Notes under the pieces: model-generated | Told to the model about the DNA's origin: nothing | Database searches by the model: none | What the model saw: the letters and a program-made list of their open reading frames with translations, nothing else | Origin: Bacteroidota bacterium | Lineage (GTDB): Bacteria; Bacteroidota; Bacteroidia; Bacteroidales; B18-G4 | Length of the DNA stretch: 64,000 nt | Direction: 5' to 3' | NCBI GenBank assembly: GCA_013202965.1 | Contig: JABMQZ010000178.1 | Location: 24,344-88,343 of the forward strand | Shown: in pieces, positions 2,281-36,699 of the stretch | Position numbering within the stretch: the first letter of the stretch is position 1 | Layout of the letters: each line of letters opens with the position of its first letter | Position numbers and translations under genes: made by a program

Positions 2281-3384
2281 ATGAAAAAACTAATACTCAT
2301 TTTAATCACTGCGCTGTTTATGTCCTCAGCAGCTTTCACACAGATCGTGCTTTCCGCTGAATTTGGTCCAACAGCTTTTTCTCCTTCTATTACCTTTAAT
2401 GGGGCACCAGGTGATTATGAGATTGTTGCTCATATTGGTGTCACCAATAGTGGCACCGAAAGTATAAACGTCAAAGTGGCGAGAGAGCAACTGTTTCTGG
2501 TCGATGGATCCCGAAGCCAGTTTTGCTGGGGTGTGTGTTATTCTTTTGATACCGACACTTCAGGTATGTCTATACCCCTTGCACCGGGTGAATCAACCAA
2601 CGAGTTTTCAGGTCACTATCAGCCGCAGACCACAGAAGGTGTTTCTATTGTAAAATATACTTTTTATGATGAGAATGATCCTTCCGGGAATTTTGCTTCT
2701 GTAATCGTACATTACAACAGCTTATTCTCGATATCAAGTCTTGCCGGTGATTCTATTTCAAAGCATATAAGACTACTGAACGGCTTTGTAGATGATCCTA
2801 TTCATGGGGTGATCAATATCCATAATCATGCATCCGTGCCGCTTAATTTTATTGCTCTGAAGGGAATGCAAATGGTATTACCAAATACTGAAAACTGGTT
2901 TTGGTTCGATGGAGTTCAATATCCTGCCAGTGTGGATACTTCAGGACTGGTAAGCATTGGCGCCGGTACAACGGATGAGTCATTCGAAGCATTTTATGAT
3001 GCTGCCGGAGTTGAAGGTGTCTCAACAGTTTATTATGTGTTCATGGATCCAACCAATCCAACCAGCTATGCTGTATTTCAGTTCAGCTATAATGCTGAGA
3101 GCACTGGTATCAGCGACAACATTCTTGAAAATACTACATTTTCCGCTGCATACCCGAACCCTGCAGAAAGCTTTGTTTCATTCGATTACGATATTCCAAA
3201 CGAAGTGAACAGGGCTGAGATCCTGATCACTAACCTGCTTGGTGCAGTGGTTTTTGAAGGCACCCTGAGCGGACTTAATGGAACTGAAAGAATCGATGTA
3301 TCCAATTTCACTGAAGGCATTTACTTTGCCACACTGAAACTCGATAATTATATCGCTTCTACACAGAAAGTGCTGATAAGATAG
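2281..3384 (+). CDS. Hypothetical secreted protein with T9SS C-terminal sorting domain
   Basis: 367 aa with a signal peptide (MKKLILILITALFMSSAAFTQ). The C-terminus is AAYPNPAESFVSFDY...EGIYFATLKLDN. No recognisable catalytic motifs. Confidence 0.8.
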   Translation: MKKLILILITALFMSSAAFTQIVLSAEFGPTAFSPSITFNGAPGDYEIVAHIGVTNSGTESINVKVAREQLFLVDGSRSQFCWGVCYSFDTDTSGMSIPLAPGESTNEFSGHYQPQTTEGVSIVKYTFYDENDPSGNFASVIVHYNSLFSISSLAGDSISKHIRLLNGFVDDPIHGVINIHNHASVPLNFIALKGMQMVLPNTENWFWFDGVQYPASVDTSGLVSIGAGTTDESFEAFYDAAGVEGVSTVYYVFMDPTNPTSYAVFQFSYNAESTGISDNILENTTFSAAYPNPAESFVSFDYDIPNEVNRAEILITNLLGAVVFEGTLSGLNGTERIDVSNFTEGIYFATLKLDNYIASTQKVLIR

Positions 3385-3452: not shown

Positions 3453-3494
3453 CTTCGTTGTTCGTTGTTCGTTATTCCTTATTCGTTATTCCAA
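3453..3494 (-). repeat. Degenerate heptamer tandem array (6 units) spanning the metK stop codon
   Basis: Plus strand reads cttcgtt gttcgtt gttcgtt attcctt attcgtt attccaa. In the metK sense this is GAATAAC GAATAAG GAATAAC GAACAAC GAACAAC GAAG. The last codons of metK (GITNKE*) are encoded by the array. Confidence 0.8.
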
Positions 3495-4881: not shown

Positions 4882-5808
4882 TTATTTATAGTTTCCGTTT
4901 GCTCTTGTCAGGGCCTGAAAAACCTCTTCAAGACTTTGCTGTTCGCGGTTGAGGGAAAGTACTGAAATATTATTATTAACAGCAAATTTAAATAGTTCCT
5001 CCCTGATGTCTTTCTCCTGAGATGCTTCAATCTCCCATGCATTTTCGCCAATTTTTCCGGCTCTGATCAGGCCTTTGATCTTCTTTAGTTTTTCCTCGTC
5101 AACTTCGCCACTGAACTCAATTTTAATGATGTCTTTTCCTGCAGTTCTTTTCGAAAGGTTTTTCGTTGAATCATCAGCTACGACCCTGCCAAGGTGAATG
5201 ATCACAGCCCTGTCGCAGATGGCTTCTACTTCCTGCATGATGTGGGTGCTGAGCAATATTGTTTTTTCCCTGCCCACCTCTTGTATAAGTGACCGGATTT
5301 CCAAAAGTTGGTTGGGGTCAAGGCCTGAAGTAGGTTCATCAAGGATCAGCACGGAAGGATCATGCAGAAGTGCCTGTGCAAGACCGACCCTCTGCCTGTA
5401 TCCTCTTGACAATGCACCGATCTTCTTGTTTTGTTCAAGTCCGAGACCTGTGAGGTCAATGATCTCGTTGATCCTCGACTTTTTTTTCTTTCCCAATTTG
5501 TGTATCCCCGCAAGAAATGATAAGTATTCTCTAACATACATGTCGAGATACAGCGGATTATGCTCCGGCAGGTATCCTACGCGTTTTTTAACTTCCAGTG
5601 CCTGCTCGAAAATGTCGTAACCATCCACGCTGGCTTCTCCGGATGTTGGAGGTAAAAAGCAGCTGATGATCTTCATCATAGTGGATTTTCCGGCTCCGTT
5701 AGGTCCCAGAAGGCCAACGACTTCGCCTGCATTAATTTCCAGCGATACAGCATCCAGCGCCTTCTGCTTTCCGTAAATCTTGGTTATTTCTTTGGCTATG
5801 ATCGACAT
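4882..5808 (-). CDS. gldA: ABC transporter ATP-binding protein, GldA-like
   Basis: Walker A GPNGAGKST, signature LSRGYRQR and Walker B VLILDEPTSGLD. Long stretches (GYLPEHNPLYLDMYVREYL, LSTHIMQEVEAICDR) resemble GldA as I remember it. The ORF track extends to a TTG at 5841; the ATG at 5808 (MSIIAKEITKIYG) is the more likely start. Confidence 0.8.
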   Translation of the reverse strand: MSIIAKEITKIYGKQKALDAVSLEINAGEVVGLLGPNGAGKSTMMKIISCFLPPTSGEASVDGYDIFEQALEVKKRVGYLPEHNPLYLDMYVREYLSFLAGIHKLGKKKKSRINEIIDLTGLGLEQNKKIGALSRGYRQRVGLAQALLHDPSVLILDEPTSGLDPNQLLEIRSLIQEVGREKTILLSTHIMQEVEAICDRAVIIHLGRVVADDSTKNLSKRTAGKDIIKIEFSGEVDEEKLKKIKGLIRAGKIGENAWEIEASQEKDIREELFKFAVNNNISVLSLNREQQSLEEVFQALTRANGNYK

Positions 5809-5848
5809 TTTCTTAAAGGTGTTTGGGCTGCGAAAATACAAAAATATA

Positions 5849-6556
5849 TTAGGGATTACGATGCATCAATCTCCTGGTATAAAGCCATATTGTGATAAGG
5901 AATAATATTTCTCCGGCCCCAAATACAAACCAGTTAAAGGATACAGGCACATAGTTTGCGGTAAATTGCATCAGTTCATTGCCCCGTGAAAATGAAAAAA
6001 CTTCCCAGAGGCTGAATTCTGATGAGATAAAATTGAAATAATCCATCGTGTAAGCAGTAATTGTTATCAGGCAACCAATGATGATCAGTGCCCACTCCTG
6101 CAATTTCATAGAAATCCTGTATCCTTTGTGCGAAAAATGCAGGATGATCAATGCCAGGATGATCATTGTTATTGAGTTGATCAAGGGGGCCAACACCGGC
6201 CCGGCCCATATTAGCGGGATGAGGAAAAGGATATCCCAGGTCATAAGGGAGGCAGGCCAGTTCAGGATGATCTTCAGAAAGACGTAATAAAAAATATCCC
6301 AGATGGCGAAAGTGAAAATAAACCATGCGGGGATCTCAGCTCTTTTCCTGGATGCAAGAACAGCAACTCCGAGTAACATGATCAGGGTGGCTGCCTCTCT
6401 CAGTATCTCGGTAATGGCGATGTGATTGTCAATAAGCCGAAGGGGAAAATCAAAGCCCTCGGGATAATAGAGCTCACGCATGTAAACGACCACCGAGCTT
6501 TCTACGAAAGCCATGCCAATTGCAAAAAAGGTGATCCAAAAAATATGATGTTTCAT
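5849..6556 (-). CDS. Hypothetical polytopic membrane protein
   Basis: 235 aa with about 6-7 hydrophobic helices by eye. It lies immediately upstream of the gldA-like gene on the same strand. No family recognised. Confidence 0.7.
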   Translation of the reverse strand: MKHHIFWITFFAIGMAFVESSVVVYMRELYYPEGFDFPLRLIDNHIAITEILREAATLIMLLGVAVLASRKRAEIPAWFIFTFAIWDIFYYVFLKIILNWPASLMTWDILFLIPLIWAGPVLAPLINSITMIILALIILHFSHKGYRISMKLQEWALIIIGCLITITAYTMDYFNFISSEFSLWEVFSFSRGNELMQFTANYVPVSFNWFVFGAGEILFLITIWLYTRRLMHRNP

Positions 6557-6648: not shown

Positions 6649-9600
6649 ATGCAACGGATTTTAATATTTCTGATTGTACTTATTTTATTCCCACAGATAG
6701 CGGTACTCCGGGCACAGACATTTACAAAGATCAATGCGGGTTTTGAAGCATGCTTTTACCCCACTGCAGCCTGGGCTGATATCGATAATGATGGTGACCT
6801 GGACGTTTTCTTTTCCGGTCTTGACGGAGCTGACAACCCGCTGGCCCACCTCTACAGCAATGATGGTGGAGGGATTTTTACGGAATTATCAAGCGCGATC
6901 ACCGGGCTTTCCTCCTCAGCATGTGCTTTTGGGGATATGAACAATGACGGGCTGGCCGATCTCGCAGTGTCAGGTCATACAGGAATTACCAGCATGTGTA
7001 TTATCTACAGGAATGATGGCGGCGGTACCTTTACGGATATCAGTGCCGGGCTTGCCGGATTTTCGGAAGGGAGCCTTGCATGGGGAGATTATGATAATGA
7101 TGGCCTGGCTGACTTGCTATGCACCGGGTTGGATGATGCACAAAATCCGATCACATTGCTTTATCATAATGATGGAGGAGAAATATTTTCGGATGCGGGG
7201 GCCTCTCTCACCGGATTGTATGAAAGCAGCCTGGCCTGGTACGATTATGACCTGGATGGGGATATGGATTTTGCCCTCAGCGGTATGGACGATGCCGGTT
7301 TGCCGCAATCCATAATTTATCGCAACGATGACGGCATTTTTAACGATATGGGTGCCGGCCTGACAGGCCTTTCAGCAGCCTCTGTAGCCTGGGGCGATTA
7401 CAATAATGACACTTATGCCGACCTGCTGCTTTCCGGTTCCGATAATGCAGGATTATCGCATACGATCCTTTATAAAAATAATAACGGAAATTCTTTCAGC
7501 CAGATTGCAGGATCTTATAATGGCATCTCACATGGATCGGCCATATGGGGAGATTTTAATAATGACGGCAATCTTGATTTTATCATCGCGGGCAGGAACA
7601 GTGCCGGAGGAAGCCCAAACCCGCCACCCCAGGTTTTATTTCTGGAGATGTATGTGAACCAGGGGAATGACCAGTTTCAGGTACAGCCTCTTCAACTGCC
7701 CGGCCTGGCATATAATGCAGTCGTGTGTGGTGATTATGATAATGATTCCGACCTCGACCTTCTGCTGGCAGGTTCTTTCGAAAATCCTATTGGCGGCAGC
7801 AATAGTACAGCGGCCTTATACAGGAATGAAACAGCAGAAATAAATATTCCTCCTGCTTCGCCTTCCGGTTTATCTTATGAAGTGATTGGAACTGATGTGA
7901 TCCTGCAGTGGGATGCTGCCAGTGACGACAAAACTCCAGGTCCAGGCTTGAATTATAATATTCGTGTAGGAAGCCAGCCGGATAACATGGATTTTTATTC
8001 AGCTCTTGCCGGTCTGTCAGATGGCTATCGAAGGATCGTAAGCACAGGGAATACGGGTGGAAATACATCATGGAGTATCATTGGCCTTGAGTTTGGGGAT
8101 TATTATGCCTCTGTTCAGGCCCTTGATCATGATTATGCAGCATCTTCCTTTTCTCCGGATATTATTATTGCTGTTCTTCCAACTGCTACTTTCAGTCTGG
8201 TAGATTCCTTATGTATTTTTGAACAAACAACGATTAGCTATACAGGAAATGCATCCCCATCAGCACAATATATATGGGATTTTGGCGGGGGCATGGTCCT
8301 CTCCGGTACCGGCCAGGGGCCATATGTAGTTTATTGGGGTACTGAAGGTCTTAAGACTGTAACTTTAACTGTTATTGAAAACAATGTGGCCTCAGTTCCT
8401 GTAAGCAAGCAGGTAATGATCGTTGGAGATGCGCCTGCTCCGGGTGCCATTAGCGGTGAAACGGAATTATGTCAGGGAACAGAAACGAGCGAATATGTTA
8501 TTGCTCCTTTGCCGGGTGTCAACACCTATGAGTGGCGCCTGAATCCATCTGAAGCCGGAGCTATAAATGGTAATACCATAGTGGCCGTTGTTGAATGGAA
8601 TCCCGATTTTACAGGCAATGCTTACGTCTTTGTCAGGGGTATCAATGCCTGTGGCACCGGACCTTATTCCGATAGCCTCGAAATTACATTGTATCCACTG
8701 CCTGCTCAGCCTGGCAAGCCGGAGGGCCCTGATCAATTGTGCCTGAATTCACCGAATACAAACTACACTACAAGTGGTGCTGCATTTGCGAATGCATACC
8801 AATGGTATTTGGCTCCTGAATCGGCAGGTGCCATATTCGGAAGCGGACTGGAAGCCGAAGTCGACTGGGATAATACCTATACCGGAATTGTTGAGATCTA
8901 TGTAAGCTCGTTCAATGATTGTGGAGCAGGTCCTGAATCCGACACCCTTATTGTTATAATAAATCTTCCTCCGGATGTTGATGCCGGCGAAGATCAGGTC
9001 ATCCCATTTGGAACTTCAACACAACTGCATGGCAGCGTCACCGGTGGTTCTGGTTCCTATTCTTATGCCTGGTCACCTCCTGAATTTCTCGTAGACCACA
9101 CGGTGCCGGAACCTTTTACGGTTGATATGGAGCAAAGCAAGCAATTTACACTGCTTGTCATTGATGAAGTGACATCCTGTTCAGCCCAGGATCAGGTTGC
9201 CATATCGGTTTCGGGCGGAGAGCTTGGCCTTGAAGTTTATGCTGACCCGGAACAGTTGTGTCAGGAAGAGGAGTCGCAGCTTCTGGCCCTGGCCGGGGGC
9301 GGAACTGGTGTATATACTTATGCCTGGACTTCTCAACCGCCAGGATTCACTGCTGATATTCCTGACCCTGTTGTGAGCCCGATGGAGACTACAAGCTATT
9401 ATGCTGAAGTATCGGATGGAAATGGGACAGTGTCGGATAGCATTATATTAACGGTTTTCCCACTGCCGGGCGATGCCGGTCCGCTAAGCGGAGCTGATGA
9501 AGTATGTGCAGGTGATGAACTCATCCTCTATGAAATTGATGCGGTACCATTTGCCACACAATATTACTGGACCCTTCCTTCCGGGGCCTATGGAGGGAGT

Positions 9601-10281
9601 GACAGCGCAGCGATTTATGTGAGTTTTACCGGGCTTGCAGAATCCGGGGAAATTCAAGTGATCCCGGTCAATGATTGCGGGCAGGGAGAAGCTTCATTAA
9701 TGTATATAGATGTAAAATATGTGACAGGAATTCCGGAAACACCCTACGGGCCTGATACGATCTGTACAAGCACGGATACCATAAGTACCTATATTCTGGA
9801 TGAAGGGGTAACAGGAGCCATTTATTATGAATGGAGGCTTCTGCCTGAGGAGGCCGGTACTATTCTGGGCGATGGATTGTCAGCCAGCGTCCACTGGACT
9901 TTTAATTGGGAAGGCATGGCTGCGGTGAGCGTGCAGGCTGTGAATGATTGCGGACCTTCCGGCTGGGCAACCCCATTGCCTGTTTATGCTTATAATAGCC
10001 TGGGTCTTGCTGATGCGGAAACTGAAAATGTATATCTTAAGTTATTCCCTAATCCTGTAAAAGAAGTCTTGAATGTTGAGTTTTGGATGTTGAATGATAA
10101 GGAAGGGCTTATGCTGGGCGTTTGGGATATTTACGGGAGAAAATTGAAAGATATTGCAATCCCGGCTGGGCAGAAGCAGTTGCTGCTTCATGTTCCTTCT
10201 TTCCCGCAAGGATTATATATCCTTATACTAAGTGATCAGCACAGGGTTCTGGCGAATGAAAAGTTTGTGGTGAAAAAATAG
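6649..10281 (+). CDS. Large secreted FG-GAP/VCBS-repeat protein with Ig/PKD-like modules and T9SS C-terminal sorting domain
   Basis: 1210 aa with a signal peptide. The N-terminal half has about 7 repeats of the WGDYDNDGxxDL / DxDNDGDLD type. The C-terminal half has four ~85 aa Cys-bracketed modules and GGSGSYSYAWSP-type repeats. The C-terminus is LFPNPVKEVLNVEF...QGLYILILSD. Confidence 0.85.
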   Translation: MQRILIFLIVLILFPQIAVLRAQTFTKINAGFEACFYPTAAWADIDNDGDLDVFFSGLDGADNPLAHLYSNDGGGIFTELSSAITGLSSSACAFGDMNNDGLADLAVSGHTGITSMCIIYRNDGGGTFTDISAGLAGFSEGSLAWGDYDNDGLADLLCTGLDDAQNPITLLYHNDGGEIFSDAGASLTGLYESSLAWYDYDLDGDMDFALSGMDDAGLPQSIIYRNDDGIFNDMGAGLTGLSAASVAWGDYNNDTYADLLLSGSDNAGLSHTILYKNNNGNSFSQIAGSYNGISHGSAIWGDFNNDGNLDFIIAGRNSAGGSPNPPPQVLFLEMYVNQGNDQFQVQPLQLPGLAYNAVVCGDYDNDSDLDLLLAGSFENPIGGSNSTAALYRNETAEINIPPASPSGLSYEVIGTDVILQWDAASDDKTPGPGLNYNIRVGSQPDNMDFYSALAGLSDGYRRIVSTGNTGGNTSWSIIGLEFGDYYASVQALDHDYAASSFSPDIIIAVLPTATFSLVDSLCIFEQTTISYTGNASPSAQYIWDFGGGMVLSGTGQGPYVVYWGTEGLKTVTLTVIENNVASVPVSKQVMIVGDAPAPGAISGETELCQGTETSEYVIAPLPGVNTYEWRLNPSEAGAINGNTIVAVVEWNPDFTGNAYVFVRGINACGTGPYSDSLEITLYPLPAQPGKPEGPDQLCLNSPNTNYTTSGAAFANAYQWYLAPESAGAIFGSGLEAEVDWDNTYTGIVEIYVSSFNDCGAGPESDTLIVIINLPPDVDAGEDQVIPFGTSTQLHGSVTGGSGSYSYAWSPPEFLVDHTVPEPFTVDMEQSKQFTLLVIDEVTSCSAQDQVAISVSGGELGLEVYADPEQLCQEEESQLLALAGGGTGVYTYAWTSQPPGFTADIPDPVVSPMETTSYYAEVSDGNGTVSDSIILTVFPLPGDAGPLSGADEVCAGDELILYEIDAVPFATQYYWTLPSGAYGGSDSAAIYVSFTGLAESGEIQVIPVNDCGQGEASLMYIDVKYVTGIPETPYGPDTICTSTDTISTYILDEGVTGAIYYEWRLLPEEAGTILGDGLSASVHWTFNWEGMAAVSVQAVNDCGPSGWATPLPVYAYNSLGLADAETENVYLKLFPNPVKEVLNVEFWMLNDKEGLMLGVWDIYGRKLKDIAIPAGQKQLLLHVPSFPQGLYILILSDQHRVLANEKFVVKK

Positions 10282-13194: not shown

Positions 13195-13218
13195 ACCATA
13201 TTAGAATATCATATGAAG

Positions 13219-13250
13219 GAAGAGTGGGCGAAAGTTCGCTCTTTTTTTTT
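13219..13250 (+). terminator. Intrinsic terminator after tsf
   Basis: The agagtgggc / gttcgctct stem (includes G-U pairs) has a short loop and is followed by a T9 run (13242-13250). Confidence 0.6.
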
Positions 13251-13299
13251 GGCTGTGGGCCATGGGCGGTAGGCCTTGGGTATTCGTTCCTCTTCCGAG

Positions 13300-13752
13300 C
13301 TAGCCCAGCAACTCCCTCACAATTCCCGAAATCTCTTTGTTGTCAGCTTTCCCGGCCAGCTTTTTTGAGGCAGTGCCCATCACCCGGCCCATGTCTTTCA
13401 TGCTTTCGGCCCCGGTCTCAGCAATGATCTCTTTCACGATTTCACGCAAAGCATCCCCGCTGATTTGTTCGGGCAGATAGCTTTCTATGATCCCGAATTG
13501 GAATTCTTCTTCTTCAGCAAGTTCGATCCGGCCTTTTTCCCTGTAGATGGCGGCTGACTCTTTTCTCTGCTTTACTAATTTCTTCAGCAGTCCCATCTCC
13601 AGTTCCTCCGGTATCTCGTTCCCGGAAGTGCCTTTTGCTGTTTTTAATAAAAGTAGTCCTGACTTTACTGCCCGAAGGGCTTCAAGCTTTTTCGAATCCT
13701 TTGCCAGCATGGCGTCTTTGATATCTTTATTGATCTTTTCTGCTAATGTCAT
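13300..13752 (-). CDS. GatB/YqeY domain-containing protein
   Basis: 150 aa. The N-terminus MTLAEKINKDIKDAMLAKDSKKLEALRAVKS and the motif ESYLPEQ are typical of the YqeY family. Confidence 0.85.
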   Translation of the reverse strand: MTLAEKINKDIKDAMLAKDSKKLEALRAVKSGLLLLKTAKGTSGNEIPEELEMGLLKKLVKQRKESAAIYREKGRIELAEEEEFQFGIIESYLPEQISGDALREIVKEIIAETGAESMKDMGRVMGTASKKLAGKADNKEISGIVRELLG

Positions 13753-13840
13753 GGGTTTTGATTTTGGGTTTGCAATTTAGTAAAAAATAAGAGGTTTGCA
13801 AAGAAGCGTCAGAATAAGGGCTGTTGGGGGTTTGGTGTTA

Positions 13841-13972
13841 GATGTTCCACCTCCGCTAACCGCGTGCCGCCATAGCTTCAGCGGTGGCGCAAGCTACGGC
13901 GGACGCGGTGGGTGTTAGGTGAATTTTCGATACTCGATATTTGATATTCGTTTTTCGTTATTCAAAACATGT
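13841..13972 (-). repeat. Composite 3'-end repeat, copy A: heptamer array, conserved 20 nt box and GC-rich hairpin
   Basis: Three exact blocks (13897-13916, 13921-13950, 13951-13972) are shared with copy B at 15651-15729. An ~18 bp stem (ccgcgtgccgccatagctt pairing with aagctacggcggacgcgg) lies at 13858-13908. The array reads gaatttt cgatact cgatatt tgatatt cgttttt cgttatt. Confidence 0.85.
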
Positions 13973-15549
13973 CAATTTATTATAAGCTTTTCTTTAATCC
14001 TCATATTCTCGATTACCACTTCAATCACATACATTCCCGGTATCAAGTTTGACACATCAAGCTTATTGCTTGTCCCTCTTTGATGGATGATTCTTTGCCC
14101 GAGCCGGTTGTAAATGTTAACCTCCTCAATGCTTCCATTGATGCCCGAGATCATGATTTCTGAATGGGCAGGGTTGGGGAAAATTTTAATATCAGATTCA
14201 AAAGTATAATAATTGATATGGCTCGAATTTTCATAAATAATCTTACATATAAATATATCAGTGCCCATATTTGTGGACGTTAAGGACGTATCCCCAAATA
14301 TTGTGGTATTCATAAATGATCCTGTAGCATAAATATCATTGTTGTTATCAATAACACAAGTATTCGTGTAGTAATTCCCGACCTCTATAATGTCCTGTAT
14401 TATCCCTCCATTACTTAATTGCAAAATATGAGATTTAGAATCTAACAATAATGAGTCTCCGATTAAGGCGTCACCCTGAAAATAACAAGTAACATATATT
14501 GAATTATTATCACCAACAATACAATAAGACCGATCCATTGCTGAACTGCCAAATCCTGTTATCCAAAGCAATTCGCCAATCCTATTATATTTTGCAATGT
14601 ATATATCAAATTCTCCATTTGAGACAATGGTGTCACTATTAAAGAAAGCAGTACCGCCGAATATTCCGGTTAGATAGATGTCTTCATTTTCATCTGCAAT
14701 AATTGATGATCCGAGAGCACCCCATTCACCACCTGCTTTTCGTATCCATAATAAGTCACCGGAACTATTATATTTCGCAATAAAAATATCCTGAAATCCA
14801 GAAGAAATTAATACTGTATCATTAAAAACAGCACTATCCTTAAAGTTTCCTGTAAGGTAGATGTTATTAAAATTATCTGAAGTTACTGAAAGCCCCAAGT
14901 CTGCTTCCGCTCCCCCACCTTGATTTATCCATAAGACGTTTCCCTCATTATCTAGTTTTGCGAGAAATATGTCATAATCACCATTTGATGTCAGGCTAGT
15001 GTTGTCAAATATTACAGTATTCTGAAATATGCCGGACAAATAAAGAAAATTATCATTGTCCGTTGTGATTGAATATCCTTGATCTGATCCGGCACCACCG
15101 AACTGTTTTACCCAGTTCAGATTTCCCTCAGTATCATGGTCGGTAATAAAAATATCACATTCCCCTTTTGCTATTAATGTTGTCTCTTCAAAAGATATAG
15201 TATCACTAAAAAAGCCAACTGTATATAAATGACCGTTATTATGCATAATACAAAGGGGGCGATCATATTCCTTTCCTCCATAATCCTTTGCCCAAATAAA
15301 ATTCCCGCTTTTGTCATATTTTGAAATATAAATATCAAACAACCCCTTTGCAATTATGGATGTATTCCCAAACCAACAAGTATCAGAAAAGGTTCCTGCA
15401 CTATAAATAAAATTATCATCGCTGGTAATTGATTGTCCTATATCCGTTCCCATTCCTCCTTCCTGATGGATCCATTTAATTTTTGAGTTCTGAGCACTAA
15501 CAAAGTTGTGGGTAAAGAAAAATGCTAATATGATTACGTAGGCTTTCAT
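13972..15549 (-). CDS. Secreted beta-propeller (SBBP-type repeat) protein with T9SS C-terminal sorting domain
   Basis: 525 aa with a signal peptide. It has about 9 repeats of the pattern DIFIAKYNSSGDLLWIRKAGG / YLTGxF. The C-terminus is KIFPNPAHSEIMISG...PGMYVIEVVIEN. Confidence 0.85.
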   Translation of the reverse strand: MKAYVIILAFFFTHNFVSAQNSKIKWIHQEGGMGTDIGQSITSDDNFIYSAGTFSDTCWFGNTSIIAKGLFDIYISKYDKSGNFIWAKDYGGKEYDRPLCIMHNNGHLYTVGFFSDTISFEETTLIAKGECDIFITDHDTEGNLNWVKQFGGAGSDQGYSITTDNDNFLYLSGIFQNTVIFDNTSLTSNGDYDIFLAKLDNEGNVLWINQGGGAEADLGLSVTSDNFNNIYLTGNFKDSAVFNDTVLISSGFQDIFIAKYNSSGDLLWIRKAGGEWGALGSSIIADENEDIYLTGIFGGTAFFNSDTIVSNGEFDIYIAKYNRIGELLWITGFGSSAMDRSYCIVGDNNSIYVTCYFQGDALIGDSLLLDSKSHILQLSNGGIIQDIIEVGNYYTNTCVIDNNNDIYATGSFMNTTIFGDTSLTSTNMGTDIFICKIIYENSSHINYYTFESDIKIFPNPAHSEIMISGINGSIEEVNIYNRLGQRIIHQRGTSNKLDVSNLIPGMYVIEVVIENMRIKEKLIIN

Positions 15550-15596
15550 GAATTTATGTTTTATTTCTTCTCATTAATTTCATCATTATACTTTTA

Positions 15597-15729
15597 GGTG
15601 TTCCTCCTTCGCTCCGCTTACGCTTGCGCTGAAGCTTCAGCGTAGGAGCACGGCGGACGCGGTGGGTGTTGAATTTTCGATACTCGATATTTGATATTCG
15701 TTATTCGTTTTTCGTTATTCAAAACATGT
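15597..15729 (-). repeat. Composite repeat, copy B
   Basis: Has the same 20 nt box (15651-15670), the same 30 nt and 22 nt blocks, and one extra heptamer (ttattcg, 15701-15707) relative to copy A. It also contains a 16 nt perfect palindrome (cgctgaagcttcagcg). Confidence 0.85.
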
Positions 15730-15804
15730 TATTTAAACATTTCGTCCGCTTAAATATAATATAAAAAGCATTATAATAAAAATATTATCCATTTTATGAT
15801 CAGC

Positions 15805-15837
15805 AGAAAAAAAGCCCCACCGTATAGCAGGGCCTTT
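15805..15837 (-). terminator. Candidate intrinsic terminator after ftsZ
   Basis: The minus strand reads aaaggccc-ugcuauacggug-gggcuuuuuuu: an 8 bp stem (including A-U and G-U pairs) followed by a U-run, 40 nt downstream of the ftsZ stop. Confidence 0.45.
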
Positions 15838-15877
15838 CAAGTTCAAAAAAAAATAGCAGAATGATTAAGGTTGTGAA

Positions 15878-17506
15878 CTAATCCACATTATCATGCAAAT
15901 ATGTATTGTCTGATTTTAAGCTGGCATTTTCATCATCTCCCTCCGAGAGGGTGTATTTTGAGATTTTGGTTTCCTCAGAAGGTTTGGCGTCAGACAGGGG
16001 GATGTTTTTCCTGAGATAAGCCGGCTCATTTTCAAGATCAGACAGCCCGCCGGGAGATTTTAATTGAATGCTCATCTGGCGAAGCCGCTCTACCCTTTCC
16101 AGGGCTTTTTTCTCAAGGTTTGCTTTTTCTTCTTTTGAAATAGTATCAGGAACAGCTTCTTCTGTTTTTCCTGATGCCGGCTTACGCTCAAATAATATCA
16201 ATTCTTCCGGTTCTTCAAGCTGATCAACCGTATGACTTATTTCAGTGCTGATCTTTTTATCTGCTTCTTCCGGTACGGGATCATTCAGGCTAAAACGTAT
16301 TACCTCCGGTTTTTCTTCTTCAGTTTTGTTGCTGATAACCGGACGTGGCTCCTTCTCCTCAGGTTTGGCTTTGCTGATCAGTCTGATCTCTTCAGGTTCA
16401 TTGTCCTTTACTTTTGGTTCAATGGCGGGCCTGGTTGGATTAGGCAGCGGAACCTCTTCATCAGTCTGCCTGACAGCTGTTTTTTTCTTATACAGATCAC
16501 GGACCACCTTGCCTTCGTTGGGTTCTTTGTCGAATCCTGTTGCCACAATCGTTATACTGATCTGTTCACCCAGAGAATCATCCCTGCCTGCTCCCCAGAT
16601 GACATCTGCCTCCAGGCCTGCTTCACTCAGGATATAATCTGTTATTTCAGTGACCTCGTCCATGGAGATCTCCTTGCTGCCTGATGACAGGTACAGGAGG
16701 ATGTTTTCGGTTCCCTTTATGTCGTTATCATTCAGTAATGGAGACTTCAATGCCAAATCAATGGCAATATGTGCGCGGTTTTCACCTTCAGCAATTCCGG
16801 TACCCATAATGGCTACACCACTGTTTCGCATCACGGTGTTCACATCTTTGAAATCAATGTTGACGAATGATTTTTCGGTGATGATCTCTGCAATACCTTT
16901 TGCAGCAGTTAGCAATACGTTATCAGCAATTTTAAAAGCTTCTGAAATGCCAAGGTCTCCATGCAATTCCCTCAACTTGTCATTGCTGATGATCAATACG
17001 GCATCAGCATATTTTCTCAGTTCTTCAATACCCCTGACAGCTTGCTGTTTGCGTTTTCTTCCTTCAAAATTAAAAGGCAGGGTAACGATAGCAATAACCA
17101 GTATACTGCCGCCTTCATCCTCAGGAAGTTCGATTTCTTTTGCAAGCCGTGCAATGATAGGGGCAGCACCTGTTCCTGTTCCGCCACCCATGCCTGCAGT
17201 GATAAACAACATTTCAGTATTGGATGACAGTACTTTTTTTATATCTTCCGCCTTTTCGATAGCCGCCTTTTCTGCTACAGCAGGAACTGACCCGGCTCCC
17301 AGACCTTTGTTTCCAAGACTTATCTTATTCGGAATCGGACTCATGTCAAGAGCCTGGGCATCAGTATTGCACACGATGAAATCAACACCCGTAATCCCCT
17401 GGTTGAACATGTGATTAACTGCGTTTCCGCCACCGCCGCCAACACCGAGAACTTTTATGATGGACGACTGATTTTTTGGTTTTTCGAATTTCAAAATATC
17501 CTCCAT
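15878..17506 (-). CDS. ftsZ: Cell division protein FtsZ
   Basis: 542 aa with GVGGGGGNAVNHM and the tubulin signature GMGGGTGTGAAP. It has a long E/P/K-rich linker and a conserved C-terminal peptide region. Confidence 0.97.
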   Translation of the reverse strand: MEDILKFEKPKNQSSIIKVLGVGGGGGNAVNHMFNQGITGVDFIVCNTDAQALDMSPIPNKISLGNKGLGAGSVPAVAEKAAIEKAEDIKKVLSSNTEMLFITAGMGGGTGTGAAPIIARLAKEIELPEDEGGSILVIAIVTLPFNFEGRKRKQQAVRGIEELRKYADAVLIISNDKLRELHGDLGISEAFKIADNVLLTAAKGIAEIITEKSFVNIDFKDVNTVMRNSGVAIMGTGIAEGENRAHIAIDLALKSPLLNDNDIKGTENILLYLSSGSKEISMDEVTEITDYILSEAGLEADVIWGAGRDDSLGEQISITIVATGFDKEPNEGKVVRDLYKKKTAVRQTDEEVPLPNPTRPAIEPKVKDNEPEEIRLISKAKPEEKEPRPVISNKTEEEKPEVIRFSLNDPVPEEADKKISTEISHTVDQLEEPEELILFERKPASGKTEEAVPDTISKEEKANLEKKALERVERLRQMSIQLKSPGGLSDLENEPAYLRKNIPLSDAKPSEETKISKYTLSEGDDENASLKSDNTYLHDNVD

Positions 17507-17588: not shown

Positions 17589-18872
17589 TTATTCCTCCCC
17601 GTCTTTCTCAAACCATTCCTGGATTGTATTTAAGAAACGTCTTTGCCTTGGTTGTTTGTCGGGTTTCTGCTTTCCTTTTTTCTTCTCGCCTTTTTGTGTT
17701 TCTTTTTCTTTTTCCTTTCCCAGGCGGGTGAAGCCTTCGATAACCAGGCCTATACCTGTAGAGTACATGGGACTGGCCATTTCATCAGGTACGTCATTGG
17801 CGAGATGTTCGTTGGGGTAACCGATTCTTGTATCCATTCCGGTGATAAATTCGGTTAATTGTGCAATATGCTTTAAGAGGGCTCCACCACCCGTTAGCAC
17901 GATGCCTCCGATCAGTTTTTTCTCATATCCTGAGTTTTTGATCTCATAATGGATGTGATCAATGATCTCTTCCATCCTGGCCTGGATAATGCTGGCCAGG
18001 TTTTTCAGTGTGATCTCTTTTGGTGTCCTGCCTCGTAACCCAGGGATGGCTACAACTTCCTCATCACGGTTTTCACTGGCAAGTGCCGAACCGAATTTTA
18101 CTTTCAGTTCTTCTGCATGTTTTTTGATAATGGTACAACCTTCTTTTACATCTTCTGTGATGATGTCACCACCGAAAGGGATTACAGCAGTATGCCTGAT
18201 GATCCCATCCTGGAAAATTGCTATATCAGTTGTTCCGCCACCAATATCAACCAGGGCTACGCCGGCTTCCTTTTCTTCGTCATTCAGGACGGCTTCGGCC
18301 GAAGCAATGGGTTCAAGGACGAGATCCACCACTTCGAGGCCCGCTTTCCTGACACATTTATAAATGTTCTTGGCTGCAGCCGTCTGCCCAATGATAATAT
18401 GAAAGTTGGCCTCGAGCGAGTTACCCAACATGCCTACCGGTTGCTTAATGCCCTGTTCAGCATCAATGATATATTCCTGAGGGATCACATCGATGATCTC
18501 TTCGCCCGGAGCCATATTCAGGTTATACATGTTTGCATTCAGCGTGTCGATGTCATTTTGATTGATCTCCTCGTCAATATTTTTGCGAATGATGCTGCCA
18601 TGATGTTGCAGGCTTTTTATATGCTGCCCTGCAATGCCAACATTTACATATTTAATATCCACTCCTGATTTTAACTCTGCCTGTTCTATCGCAATCTTTA
18701 TGGAGTTCACAGTGTGTTCGATATTAGAAACCATCCCCCTTTTCACACCAATTGATTCTGTGCGTCCGTGACCGATGATCTCTATCTTGCAATGCTCGTT
18801 CTTCTGGCCAACGATAGCTGCGATTTTGGTTGTTCCAATGTCAAGTCCTACAATAATTTCTGAATTTTCCAT
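17589..18872 (-). CDS. ftsA: Cell division protein FtsA
   Basis: 427 aa with the actin-fold motifs VGLDIGTTKIAAIV and VDIGGGTTDIA. It has a basic C-terminal tail with an amphipathic FLNTIQEWFEK segment. Confidence 0.95.
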   Translation of the reverse strand: MENSEIIVGLDIGTTKIAAIVGQKNEHCKIEIIGHGRTESIGVKRGMVSNIEHTVNSIKIAIEQAELKSGVDIKYVNVGIAGQHIKSLQHHGSIIRKNIDEEINQNDIDTLNANMYNLNMAPGEEIIDVIPQEYIIDAEQGIKQPVGMLGNSLEANFHIIIGQTAAAKNIYKCVRKAGLEVVDLVLEPIASAEAVLNDEEKEAGVALVDIGGGTTDIAIFQDGIIRHTAVIPFGGDIITEDVKEGCTIIKKHAEELKVKFGSALASENRDEEVVAIPGLRGRTPKEITLKNLASIIQARMEEIIDHIHYEIKNSGYEKKLIGGIVLTGGGALLKHIAQLTEFITGMDTRIGYPNEHLANDVPDEMASPMYSTGIGLVIEGFTRLGKEKEKETQKGEKKKGKQKPDKQPRQRRFLNTIQEWFEKDGEE

Positions 18873-33915: not shown

Positions 33916-34010
33916 GACTTTATTGCTTGAATCAGTTGATTCGATGTTAGGTTCAGGGTGCCGGATACCAGATACAGGGAAAAGAACAGGGTCCATTCGG
34001 CAATTTATTC

Positions 34011-34128
34011 AACACCCACTGCGTCCGCCGTAGCGAAGCGTAGGAGGAACACTATCTTCACTCATCCAACCAGCAACCAGCTTGCCCGACCGTAGCGCAG
34101 CGAAGGCGGGTAACCAGTAACCAGAATA
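34011..34128 (+). repeat. Composite repeat, copy C (opposite orientation to copies A and B)
   Basis: The box aacacccactgcgtccgccg (34011-34030) is the reverse complement of the copy A/B box with one mismatch. It is followed by two CCGTAGCGnAGCGnAGGnGG sub-repeats and short heptamer runs (aaccagc x2; taaccag x2) that end at the stop codon of the biotin-carrier gene. Confidence 0.75.
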
Positions 34129-34458
34129 TCATTCCAACTCAATTAAAACCTGATCTTTCGCCACAATATTTCCGGTTTTGGCATTTACTTTTTTCACAAC
34201 ACCTTCAAGGGGGCTCAGGATCTGGTTTTTCATCTTCATAGCATCAAGGACCAGAAGCAGGTCGCCTGCCTTGACTTTCTCTCCTTCTTTCACACTTACT
34301 TTTCGGATGGTACCCGGCATAAATGCAAGGACCATTTTAGGGTCTTTTGCTTGATATACTTTTCGTTTCTGAAATTTTTCGGTCAGAAGGGTCCTGTATT
34401 TGAAGTACTCAATATTAAGGGTCTTCAGTTTGCCTGAATATTTGTCGTCTTTTTTCAT
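34129..34458 (-). CDS. Biotin carboxyl carrier (biotinyl/lipoyl domain) protein
   Basis: 109 aa. The biotinylation motif AMKM occurs in LLVLDAMKMKNQI. Confidence 0.85.
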   Translation of the reverse strand: MKKDDKYSGKLKTLNIEYFKYRTLLTEKFQKRKVYQAKDPKMVLAFMPGTIRKVSVKEGEKVKAGDLLLVLDAMKMKNQILSPLEGVVKKVNAKTGNIVAKDQVLIELE

Positions 34459-36197: not shown

Positions 36198-36285
36198 AGA
36201 TTAAGGGATTAACAGATTAACGGATTAACAGATTAACGGATTTGCGGATTGACGGATTTGCGGATTAACAGATTTGCGATTTAAC
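36198..36285. repeat. Octamer tandem array, 11 units (RGATTAAC / GGATTTGC)
   Basis: Units are agattaag ggattaac agattaac ggattaac agattaac ggatttgc ggattgac ggatttgc ggattaac agatttgc gatttaac. The array ends 18 nt before the ATG at 36304, in a divergent intergenic region. Confidence 0.9.
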
Positions 36286-36303: not shown

Positions 36304-36654
36304 ATGAATATAGAAGATCTTAGAGCATACTGTCTTTTAAAGAAAGGCGTTACGGAAAGTTTTCCTTTTAATGAGACCACCCTTGTTTTTAAAGTCATGA
36401 ACAAGATGTTTGCACTTACAGATCTGGAAGGAGAGCTGAGCGTGAGCATTAAATGTGATCCGGAACTTGCGATCAGTCTGAGGGAACAATATACCGCCGT
36501 AAGGCCCGCCTGGCATTTCAATAAAAAGCATTGGAATAATGTGCTTATTGATGGCAGTGTCGATATTTCACTCATCAAAGAGTGGATCGATCATTCCTAT
36601 GAACTGGTGGTGAGTAAGCTGCCGTTAAAGGATAGAAAGGCGTTGGAAAGTTGA
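36304..36654 (+). CDS. MmcQ/YjbR family protein
   Basis: 116 aa. MNIEDLRAYCLLKKGVTESFPF...LVFKVMNKMFAL...WHFNKKHWNNV fits the YjbR family pattern. Confidence 0.8.
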   Translation: MNIEDLRAYCLLKKGVTESFPFNETTLVFKVMNKMFALTDLEGELSVSIKCDPELAISLREQYTAVRPAWHFNKKHWNNVLIDGSVDISLIKEWIDHSYELVVSKLPLKDRKALES

Positions 36655-36699
36655 TATCAGATATCAGATATCAGAGATCAGAAATCAGAATTTGAGAAT
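36653..36699. repeat. Heptamer tandem array (GATATCA x3, GAGATCA, GAAATCA, then degenerate units)
   Basis: The array starts inside the TGA stop of the YjbR-like gene. It fills the whole 45 nt gap up to the stop codon of the convergent small membrane protein gene. Confidence 0.9.

Follow-up and report, generated by a model that had tools for sequence, protein, structure and literature searches.

Organization of the ftsZ-yqeY locus

In the 64-kb window analysed here (the whole stretch of DNA from contig JABMQZ010000178.1 of a Bacteroidota bacterium), a single cargo gene of the type IX secretion system (T9SS) is situated between ftsZ, the final gene of the dcw cluster, and yqeY, and is bracketed by two copies of a composite direct repeat. 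The cargo gene (13972-15549) is intact and encodes a protein of 525 amino acids with a signal peptide and SBBP beta-propeller repeats (Pfam SBBP and Por_Secre_tail). Comparison with related genomes identifies it as a lineage-specific insertion and the AT-rich half of the repeat as the 3' spacer of the cargo family itself, an arrangement that is best read as the import of a cargo segment carrying this spacer at both ends.

The flanking genes are ftsZ (15878-17506; Pfam Tubulin and FtsZ_C) and yqeY (13300-13752; Pfam YqeY, 5e-43). All three genes, as well as the arrays, the leader and the expression signals described below, lie on the minus strand. In the direction of transcription, ftsZ is followed by a terminator-like hairpin with a T-run (15807-15853; TTTTTGAAC..GGCCCTGC..GGTGGGGCTTTTTTT) and by an AT-rich stretch (15729-15806), which leads to the first repeat. 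The ftsZ-proximal spacer (15730-15877) has an overall GC content of 28%. Within the AT-rich stretch, neither a coding relic (blastx) nor similarity to the 3' end of the cargo gene can be detected; the left junction of the import would lie somewhere inside it.

Each repeat copy measures about 130 nt and combines an AT-rich degenerate heptamer array with a GC-rich hairpin. In copy B (15597-15729), located between ftsZ and the cargo gene, the array is 64 nt long (15665-15728) and consists of the units CATGTTTTG AATAACG AAAAACG AATAACG AATATCA AATATCG AGTATCG AAAATTC AACACC. It is followed by hairpin B (62 nt, 15603-15664), which includes a 16-nt perfect palindrome (15627-15642), and by a second AACACC adjoining the hairpin at 15597-15602. 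The cargo gene is preceded by a 5' leader of 47 nt with a GC content of 17% (15550-15596), which was recognised by DNA comparison with L112, the locus of the closest cargo homolog. In copy A (13841-13972), the array (61 nt, 13911-13971) is followed by hairpin A (64 nt, 13847-13910), whose left arm recurs inside the hairpin in inverted orientation (13859-13873). Further to the right come AACATC and AACACC-like heptamers (AACATCT AACACCA AACCCCC AACAGCC; 13818-13846), and beyond them a promoter-like box of yqeY (13766-13802), TTTG..19 nt..TAAATTGCA.

The direct repeats

Three blocks are identical between the two copies: 21 nt (13896-13916 and 15650-15670), 32 nt (13921-13952 and 15671-15702), which is the longest perfect identity, and 23 nt (13951-13973 and 15708-15730). 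Outside the hairpin cores, the repeat flanks show no mismatch over 74 aligned positions and are interrupted by two indels, one of 4 nt (AGGT, present in copy A) and one of 7 nt (one extra heptamer in copy B). These 74 aligned nucleotides without substitution bear out an earlier, sequence-only reading of the locus, which had described near-identical direct repeats around one T9SS gene. Its three identical blocks stand as well, with the first being 21 instead of 20 nt long and the second extending to 32 nt. Copy A was said to abut the stop codon, and indeed the two are in contact, with an overlap of one base; copy B was correctly placed upstream of the start codon, at a distance of 47 and not 48 nt. 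In shuffled versions of the window, no match to either the 32-mer or the 21-mer was obtained. Judged by their sequence, the repeat copies are true duplicates rather than chance resemblances.

The hairpin cores behave differently from the flanks. Their alignment comprises 54 columns with 33 matches, 9 mismatches and 12 gap columns, in line with the earlier description of GC-rich portions that are related yet diverged. Mismatches amount to 9 of 42 positions in the cores versus 0 of 74 in the flanks (Fisher p = 5.8e-5). Despite this divergence, the alignment identifies the cores of hairpins A and B as homologous.

The cargo gene as an insertion

Synteny was compared across 80 ftsZ loci of related Bacteroidota, sampled as one genome per species. 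About 57 of these 80 loci have yqeY directly after ftsZ, and a homolog of the cargo gene between the two genes is found in none. Moreover, the GC content of the cargo gene (34.9%) is the lowest among the 41 genes of the window (44.7 ± 2.6%; z = -3.8), and the GC content at third codon positions deviates likewise (z = -3.1 versus the window genes). The cargo gene is a lineage-specific insertion of foreign composition, located behind the last gene of the dcw cluster. This agrees with the footprint of an insertion or duplication of an accessory gene that had been proposed from the sequence; a situation in which all relatives carry the gene at this position is not encountered.

The closest homologs of the cargo protein share 75%, 58% and 47% identity with it. 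All of them are encoded inside tandem clusters of Por_Secre_tail genes, on contigs with a GC content of 37-40%. On balance, a donor of lower GC content is the best explanation for the origin of the gene. Three other Por_Secre_tail genes are located within 13 kb (430-2088, 2281-3384 and 6649-10281); their GC content is normal for the genome, unlike that of the cargo insert.

The AT-rich half is the 3' spacer of the cargo family

The 75% identical homolog in L112 matches the window with 80.4% nucleotide identity over 1636 nt (blastn); the match begins 14 nt before the start codon and reaches 41 nt into the sequence behind the stop codon. An anchored alignment extends this similarity over the whole AT-rich array up to AACACC, through ATCGAAAATT.ACCTAACACC, with TGA-CATGTTTTGAATAACGA .. 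ATCGAAAATTCACCTAACACC in the window facing TGA-TGTGTATTGATTAACGA .. ATCGAAAATTAACCTAACACC in L112. The array starts right behind the stop codon and ends with ..ACCTAACACC; apart from the hairpin, the only difference between the window array and L112 is the number of heptamer units. Removal of the 62-nt (copy B) or 64-nt (copy A) hairpin together with one AACACC restores colinearity with L112. In copy B, this colinearity runs for 18 nt more, with 14 of 18 positions matching, up to the next start codon of L112. Accordingly, the first 18 nt of the cargo leader are colinear with the L112 spacer (TAAAAGTATAATGATGAA vs TAAAAATGTAAGCATGAA), and its last ~40 nt match the leader of the L112 gene itself. 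Due to this colinearity with the spacer behind the L112 homolog, the AT-rich half is identified as the native 3' spacer of the cargo family. It occurs exactly twice in the window, in copies A and B, where the array is identical over 59 nt and joined to the hairpin at the same junction.

Tandem Repeats Finder reports a period of 7 at 13926-13963 and 15676-15720. Among short tandem arrays, period 7 with its multiples is the most frequent class both in the window (7 of 13 arrays) and in the close family (16 of 50); the corresponding figure for distant Bacteroidota is 29 of 151. Further arrays in the window are TTCGTTA x5.4 after a terminator (3454-3491), GATTAACG x9.5 upstream of the open reading frame (ORF) starting at 36305 (36199-36285), and GATATCA x5.3 directly after a stop codon (36653-36689). 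The GATTAACG array uses the GATTAAC unit, as does the spacer behind the L112 cargo homolog.

Resident ends and variable middle of the ftsZ-yqeY spacer

The terminator-like hairpin behind ftsZ aligns with a counterpart in 8 relatives (FtsZ identity 64-72%); a simple terminator scan does not call it, the hairpin being too loose for the scan. The yqeY promoter box aligns with the TTAAnTTTGCA boxes of 9 relatives. As these alignments indicate, the outer parts of the spacer are resident, with orthologous counterparts in the relatives. Upstream of ftsZ, gene calling places ftsA at 17589-18872 on the minus strand.

Three relatives with an FtsZ identity of 87-89% have a spacer of only 15 nt between ftsZ and yqeY, TTCAAATCAGAACCC (L032 8633-8650, L119 7476-7490, L123 3255-3269). 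Insertion of the whole 2.1 kb into an ancestral 15-nt spacer was considered and rejected, since the window shares its terminator and promoter box, as orthologous features, with the relatives of 64-72% FtsZ identity; for the same reason, the 15-nt spacer is attributed to a secondary deletion. With terminator, arrays and promoter deleted, yqeY would be co-transcribed with ftsZ in these three genomes. The comparison portrays the ancestral spacer of the family as a hypervariable stretch between a terminator and a promoter, and this middle stretch holds the cargo block.

In the relatives, the middle of the spacer is occupied by tandem heptamer arrays of many different units, broken up by small GC hairpins. 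The orthologous spacer of L043, for instance, contains an AACACC-flanked hairpin. In L122 (1-62), which has a 96%-identical YqeY and covers 62 nt upstream of the gene, ~40-45 nt are shared with the window and are followed by complete divergence (aaataagaaaatcgggatagtttca), so that the spacer middle differs even among very close relatives. Another case is L033 (72% FtsZ identity; 5030-6064), where a 253-nt spacer 3' of ftsZ harbors a GC hairpin containing GAAGCTTCAGC. Behind this hairpin, a gene for an FG-GAP repeat protein with a signal peptide takes the place of yqeY, and the contig ends before yqeY becomes visible. This secreted-protein gene represents a separate insertion of an accessory gene next to ftsZ, at the junction also used in the window, which marks the ftsZ spacer as a recurrent insertion site.

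Variation is also seen next to this spacer. Heptamer arrays differ among L032, L119 and L123: in their yqeY-tsf spacers (L032 9100-9300, L119 7944-8030, L123 3723-3850), arrays of AGACCGA and GTACCGC vary in length and composition among otherwise very similar genomes. The yqeY-tsf spacer of the window holds only a decayed array remnant (13195-13299). In L044 (9088-9714), the spacer in front of yqeY is 603 nt long, and an upstream ATG opens a 58-codon in-frame extension of yqeY. The extension begins with MQDAYTALIIDDEQDD, which resembles the start of a response regulator, and probably represents a leftover gene fragment.

A family of GC-rich hairpins

Hairpin A folds with -51 to -56 kcal/mol (z about -5) and hairpin B with -33 to -44 kcal/mol. 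In both copies, the GC-rich half begins exactly past the AACACC of the array; the hexamer on its far side is AACACC in copy B and AACATC in copy A. At the homologous position, L112 has a lone AACACC and no hairpin, and thus represents an empty site. The second AACACC beside the hairpin looks like a target-site duplication.

Conserved ends of the hairpins define a dispersed family with three copies in the window. Hairpins A and B are recovered by a family-profile search (nhmmer E = 5.4e-7 and 1.4e-8, respectively). The third copy, a short form of the module on the minus strand (34005-34055, module 34011-34052), was recognised by sequence match and profile search; it directly follows the stop codon of a biotin/lipoyl-carrier-like ORF (34129-34458). 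Adjoining it at 34057-34124 is a further hairpin, CCCGCCTTCGCTGCGCTACGGTCGGG, with TGGTTAC/TGGTTGC heptamers on its flanks. The sub-motifs CTTCGC/GCGAAG and GAAGCTT are common to many hairpins in the clade.

A 19-mer from the module end was used as query in a metagenome collection that does not include the sample of the window itself. The scan returned 24 hits, 17 of which are chance matches in high-GC coding DNA. The other seven contigs, representing six distinct loci, carry the independent left-hand motif GGTGTTCCNCCTTC. All six loci are intergenic and unrelated to each other, and the modules lie within GGGTGTT or GTGTTGA heptamer arrays. Some of these modules directly follow stop codons and others are located in divergent promoter regions, with mixed orientation relative to the genes. 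A search of 1.24 Mb of related loci with the family profile yielded no further copies. A consistent RNA-level structure of the short module is not supported, since its 6-bp stem is centrally mismatched in 5 of 7 copies and the orientation is mixed. The family of GC-rich hairpin repeats in uncultured Bacteroidales is apparently undescribed.

These findings affect the earlier suggestion that a cassette was captured by recombination between dispersed repeats. The GC-rich hairpin half is indeed dispersed, but the AT-rich half is the 3' spacer of the cargo gene and is found in the window only at copies A and B.

Comparison with known elements

Cyanobacterial STRR elements are intergenic tandem heptanucleotide repeats. 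The arrays described here are likewise built of intergenic 7-nt units in head-to-tail arrangement that vary between relatives, and can be classified as heptanucleotide tandem repeats of the long simple sequence repeat (LSSR) or STRR type. Known examples of intergenic heptanucleotide repeats include LSSRs (Mrazek 2007, as summarised in PMC4679880) and TAACTGA repeats (MacGregor 2015, PMC4679880); such repeats have been reported from some Bacteroidetes as well. Common to the known repeats and the present arrays are the position of short arrays right after stop or before start codons and the hypervariability of copy number and unit among close relatives. In contrast to the known repeats, the arrays described here are degenerate, with drifting units, and are interrupted by GC hairpins; moreover, one of them stably accompanies a cargo gene family in different genomes.

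For the GC-rich module, the closest parallels are repetitive extragenic palindromic (REP) sequences, miniature inverted-repeat transposable elements (MITEs) and small dispersed repeats. In 2008, Elhai is said to have described small dispersed repeats of cyanobacteria that are nested within heptamer arrays. The present module resembles all three classes in being short and extragenic, in forming an imperfect palindrome whose ends are conserved and whose centre varies, and in its occurrence at unrelated loci of several genomes, where it nests in simple repeats. Unlike the inverted REP doublets known as REPINs (for REP/REPIN elements and MITEs see Bertels & Rainey 2011, PMC3116915), the modules are singlets, and hairpins A and B are direct repeats 1.75 kb apart. 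Among the window ORFs scanned, no RAYT, Y1_Tnp-like ORF, transposase, integrase or recombinase is present. Features of a MITE are the inverted-repeat arms, AACACC on both sides (AACACC..AACATC in copy A) and the empty site in L112, which provides one empty/filled pair.

An integron cassette with its attC site offers a further comparison. Similarities are a promoterless-looking gene bounded by structured repeats that start at the stop codon, and repeats with conserved ends and variable centres. However, the AT-rich half is a gene-linked spacer and not a recombination site. RYYYAAC-like motifs (ACCTAAC, ATCTAAC) flank hairpin A in direct orientation and the inverted GTTRRRY partner is absent; integrase is missing from the window ORFs scanned, and a single gene is found in place of a cassette array. 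An integron origin was rejected on these grounds. The same applies to an insertion sequence (IS) or composite transposon and to a phage or plasmid module, for which neither a mobility gene among the window ORFs scanned nor similarity to mobile DNA was found: blastn against phage and plasmid collections gave no match, and the single viral pattern hit is due to chance. Rfam models gave 0 hits at the gathering score in the whole window and, for the local region, only chance-level matches at E <= 1. Finally, hairpins A and B are not intrinsic terminators, since a U-tract is absent: read along the gene strand, no T-run comes after either of them, and a terminator scan finds no minus-strand site at these positions.

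Proposed history of the insertion

These data are best read, with a probability of roughly 0.55, as the import of a terminally redundant segment into a spacer that is hypervariable and rich in heptamers. The imported DNA would have carried the spacer at both ends, in the order spacer, 5' leader, cargo gene, spacer, since copies A and B each include the array linked to the cargo gene and copy B, with its hairpin removed, is of donor type on both sides. The probable source is a tandem cargo array from which a part was taken, or else a tandem or circular duplicate that contributed a little over one unit (cargo and spacer). The segment would then have settled in the hypervariable middle of the ftsZ-yqeY spacer. 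The GC hairpin may have entered at AACACC in a single event preceding the duplication or in two events from the same master copy. If the import brought the spacer along at both ends, the direct repeat would be a by-product of how the segment was generated and not the footprint of a repeat resident at the dcw locus.

After these events, the hairpin cores would have changed far more rapidly than the flanks, with template switching inside the quasi-palindromes as the probable cause. Template switching is known to homogenise and extend the arms of inverted repeats (PMC7202029, PMC8794818, PMC13100816). Identical flanks beside diverged cores, together with the inverted copy of its own arm in hairpin A, fit such a templated change.

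Several observations weigh against an import of this kind. To the left of copy B, neither local DNA alignment against shuffles nor blastx revealed remains of an upstream paralog, so that an excerpt of a tandem array would have to begin within a few nucleotides of a stop codon. A donor locus with the order spacer-cargo-spacer was not found, and in L112 no such spacer precedes the homolog. The enlarged cores of hairpins A and B are a shared derived feature absent from the short family members, which calls for either one insertion predating the duplication or two from one master copy. In addition, the AACACC-like heptamers on the right flank of hairpin A look resident and leave room for recombination with a resident hairpin. 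The count of composite copies refers to 64 kb of this genome.

Alternative explanations

A tandem duplication or a Campbell-type integration would likewise produce direct repeats of ~130 nt around one foreign gene that is absent from relatives and deletable by recombination. In this scenario, a circular molecule with the cargo gene and one repeat recombined homologously with a repeat resident in the ftsZ-yqeY spacer. The spacers of relatives do hold heptamer arrays and GC hairpins, such as the AACACC-flanked hairpin of L043 and the GAAGCTTCAGC hairpin of L033; the GC module is a dispersed element of resident type, and the resident appearance of the flank to the right of hairpin A would fit as well. 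However, the AT-rich half derives from the 3' spacer of the incoming gene and not from the target: it is present in both copies, linked to the cargo gene in another genome and starts at the stop-codon position. It occurs nowhere else in the window, and its presence on both sides is left unexplained. Furthermore, perfect identity is confined to 21-32 nt, none of the relatives examined has a single composite copy at this site, and the identical flanks beside diverged cores are explained no better than by a terminally redundant import. Capture of this type is considered unlikely.

Somewhat more doubtful still is a history in which the gene arrived with its downstream spacer only and the composite repeat was copied upstream after insertion of the hairpin. 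Copying could have proceeded by gene conversion or by template switching during replication, or the hairpin could have transposed into a second, pre-existing array. The derived, enlarged cores common to hairpins A and B would be accounted for, and heptamer arrays are prone to slippage and hypervariable among close relatives. On the other hand, copy B without its hairpin is colinear with the donor-type spacer beyond the hairpin, which argues that the upstream array arrived as donor DNA and was not copied from copy A. Moreover, a mechanism for placing the copy exactly upstream of the 5' leader is lacking.

The GC hairpins, with their direct orientation and conserved ends beside an AACACC target, could also be regarded as the left and right ends of a non-autonomous single-strand "peel-and-paste" unit with a passenger gene, comparable to IS200/IS605 or REPIN elements. 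A Y1/HUH transposase from another part of the genome would act on this unit in trans, with GGGTGTT heptamer arrays as the target. This combination is very improbable. If true, it would constitute a hairpin-bounded mobile cassette system for T9SS cargo genes in Bacteroidales.

That the gene is flanked merely by chance by two copies of an abundant, generic element, be it intergenic or a terminator, hardly comes into question. The GC module is dispersed and heptamer arrays are common in the clade, but the irregular AT-rich array, identical in both copies, is unique to them in 64 kb and meets the hairpin at the same junction. A U-tract is absent, no terminator is called on the gene strand, the 64 kb contain three GC modules, and the family profile finds nothing more in 1.24 Mb. 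The sequence-only reading had itself pointed to an abundant generic terminator as the finding that would undo it; the elements described here are not of that kind.

Continuity of the assembly and possible excision

The possibility that a repeat-bounded contig was misplaced between ftsZ and yqeY is practically negligible: although the contigs carrying the cargo gene in three other assemblies of the same organism are short and end within or next to the repeats, L006 connects ftsZ with the copy-B-specific core sequence and L002 connects the copy-B core via the cargo gene to the copy-A core. The order ftsZ, copy B, cargo gene, copy A is independently supported by these joins. Long contigs from several assemblies are concordant, with the window being matched by a JGI metagenome contig and the same proteins encoded on a 108.7-kb contig of an NCBI metagenome-assembled genome. 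The arrangement is no assembly artefact.

Homologous recombination between the repeats would delete the cargo gene. For RecA-dependent recombination, 32 nt is near the minimum efficient length. As the longest identity between the copies measures just 32 nt, deletion of the cargo is possible and would be expected to be rare. Among the contigs with identical FtsZ, YqeY, cargo protein or RplM, neither a deletion junction with a single repeat nor an empty site was found; either the block is present, or the contigs break within the repeats. The precise excision envisaged earlier is thus physically possible, but a deletion junction appears in no contig searched.

The contig of a relative with 98%-identical FtsZ stops 2 nt past the ftsZ stop codon. 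The assemblies of the close relatives L118, L120 and L121 end 2-27 nt after the ftsZ stop codon. Breaks at this position suggest strain-level variation or repeats at the ftsZ junction in natural populations.

Functional and biological significance

Due to the resident terminator and promoter, expression of ftsZ and yqeY need not depend on the insert, and read-through of the insert is not needed. By analogy to REP elements, hairpins A and B might protect the 3' ends of mRNAs.

Overall, the locus is an example of fairly ordinary genome plasticity and does not overturn current understanding. It provides a case at nucleotide resolution of how an accessory gene for a secreted protein settles in a highly conserved bacterial gene neighbourhood without breaking its order. 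It also illustrates that direct repeats around a gene can derive from the flank of the gene itself and not from the target. The family of GC hairpins represents an analogue of REP sequences, MITEs and small dispersed repeats in a phylum in which such elements have been little studied.

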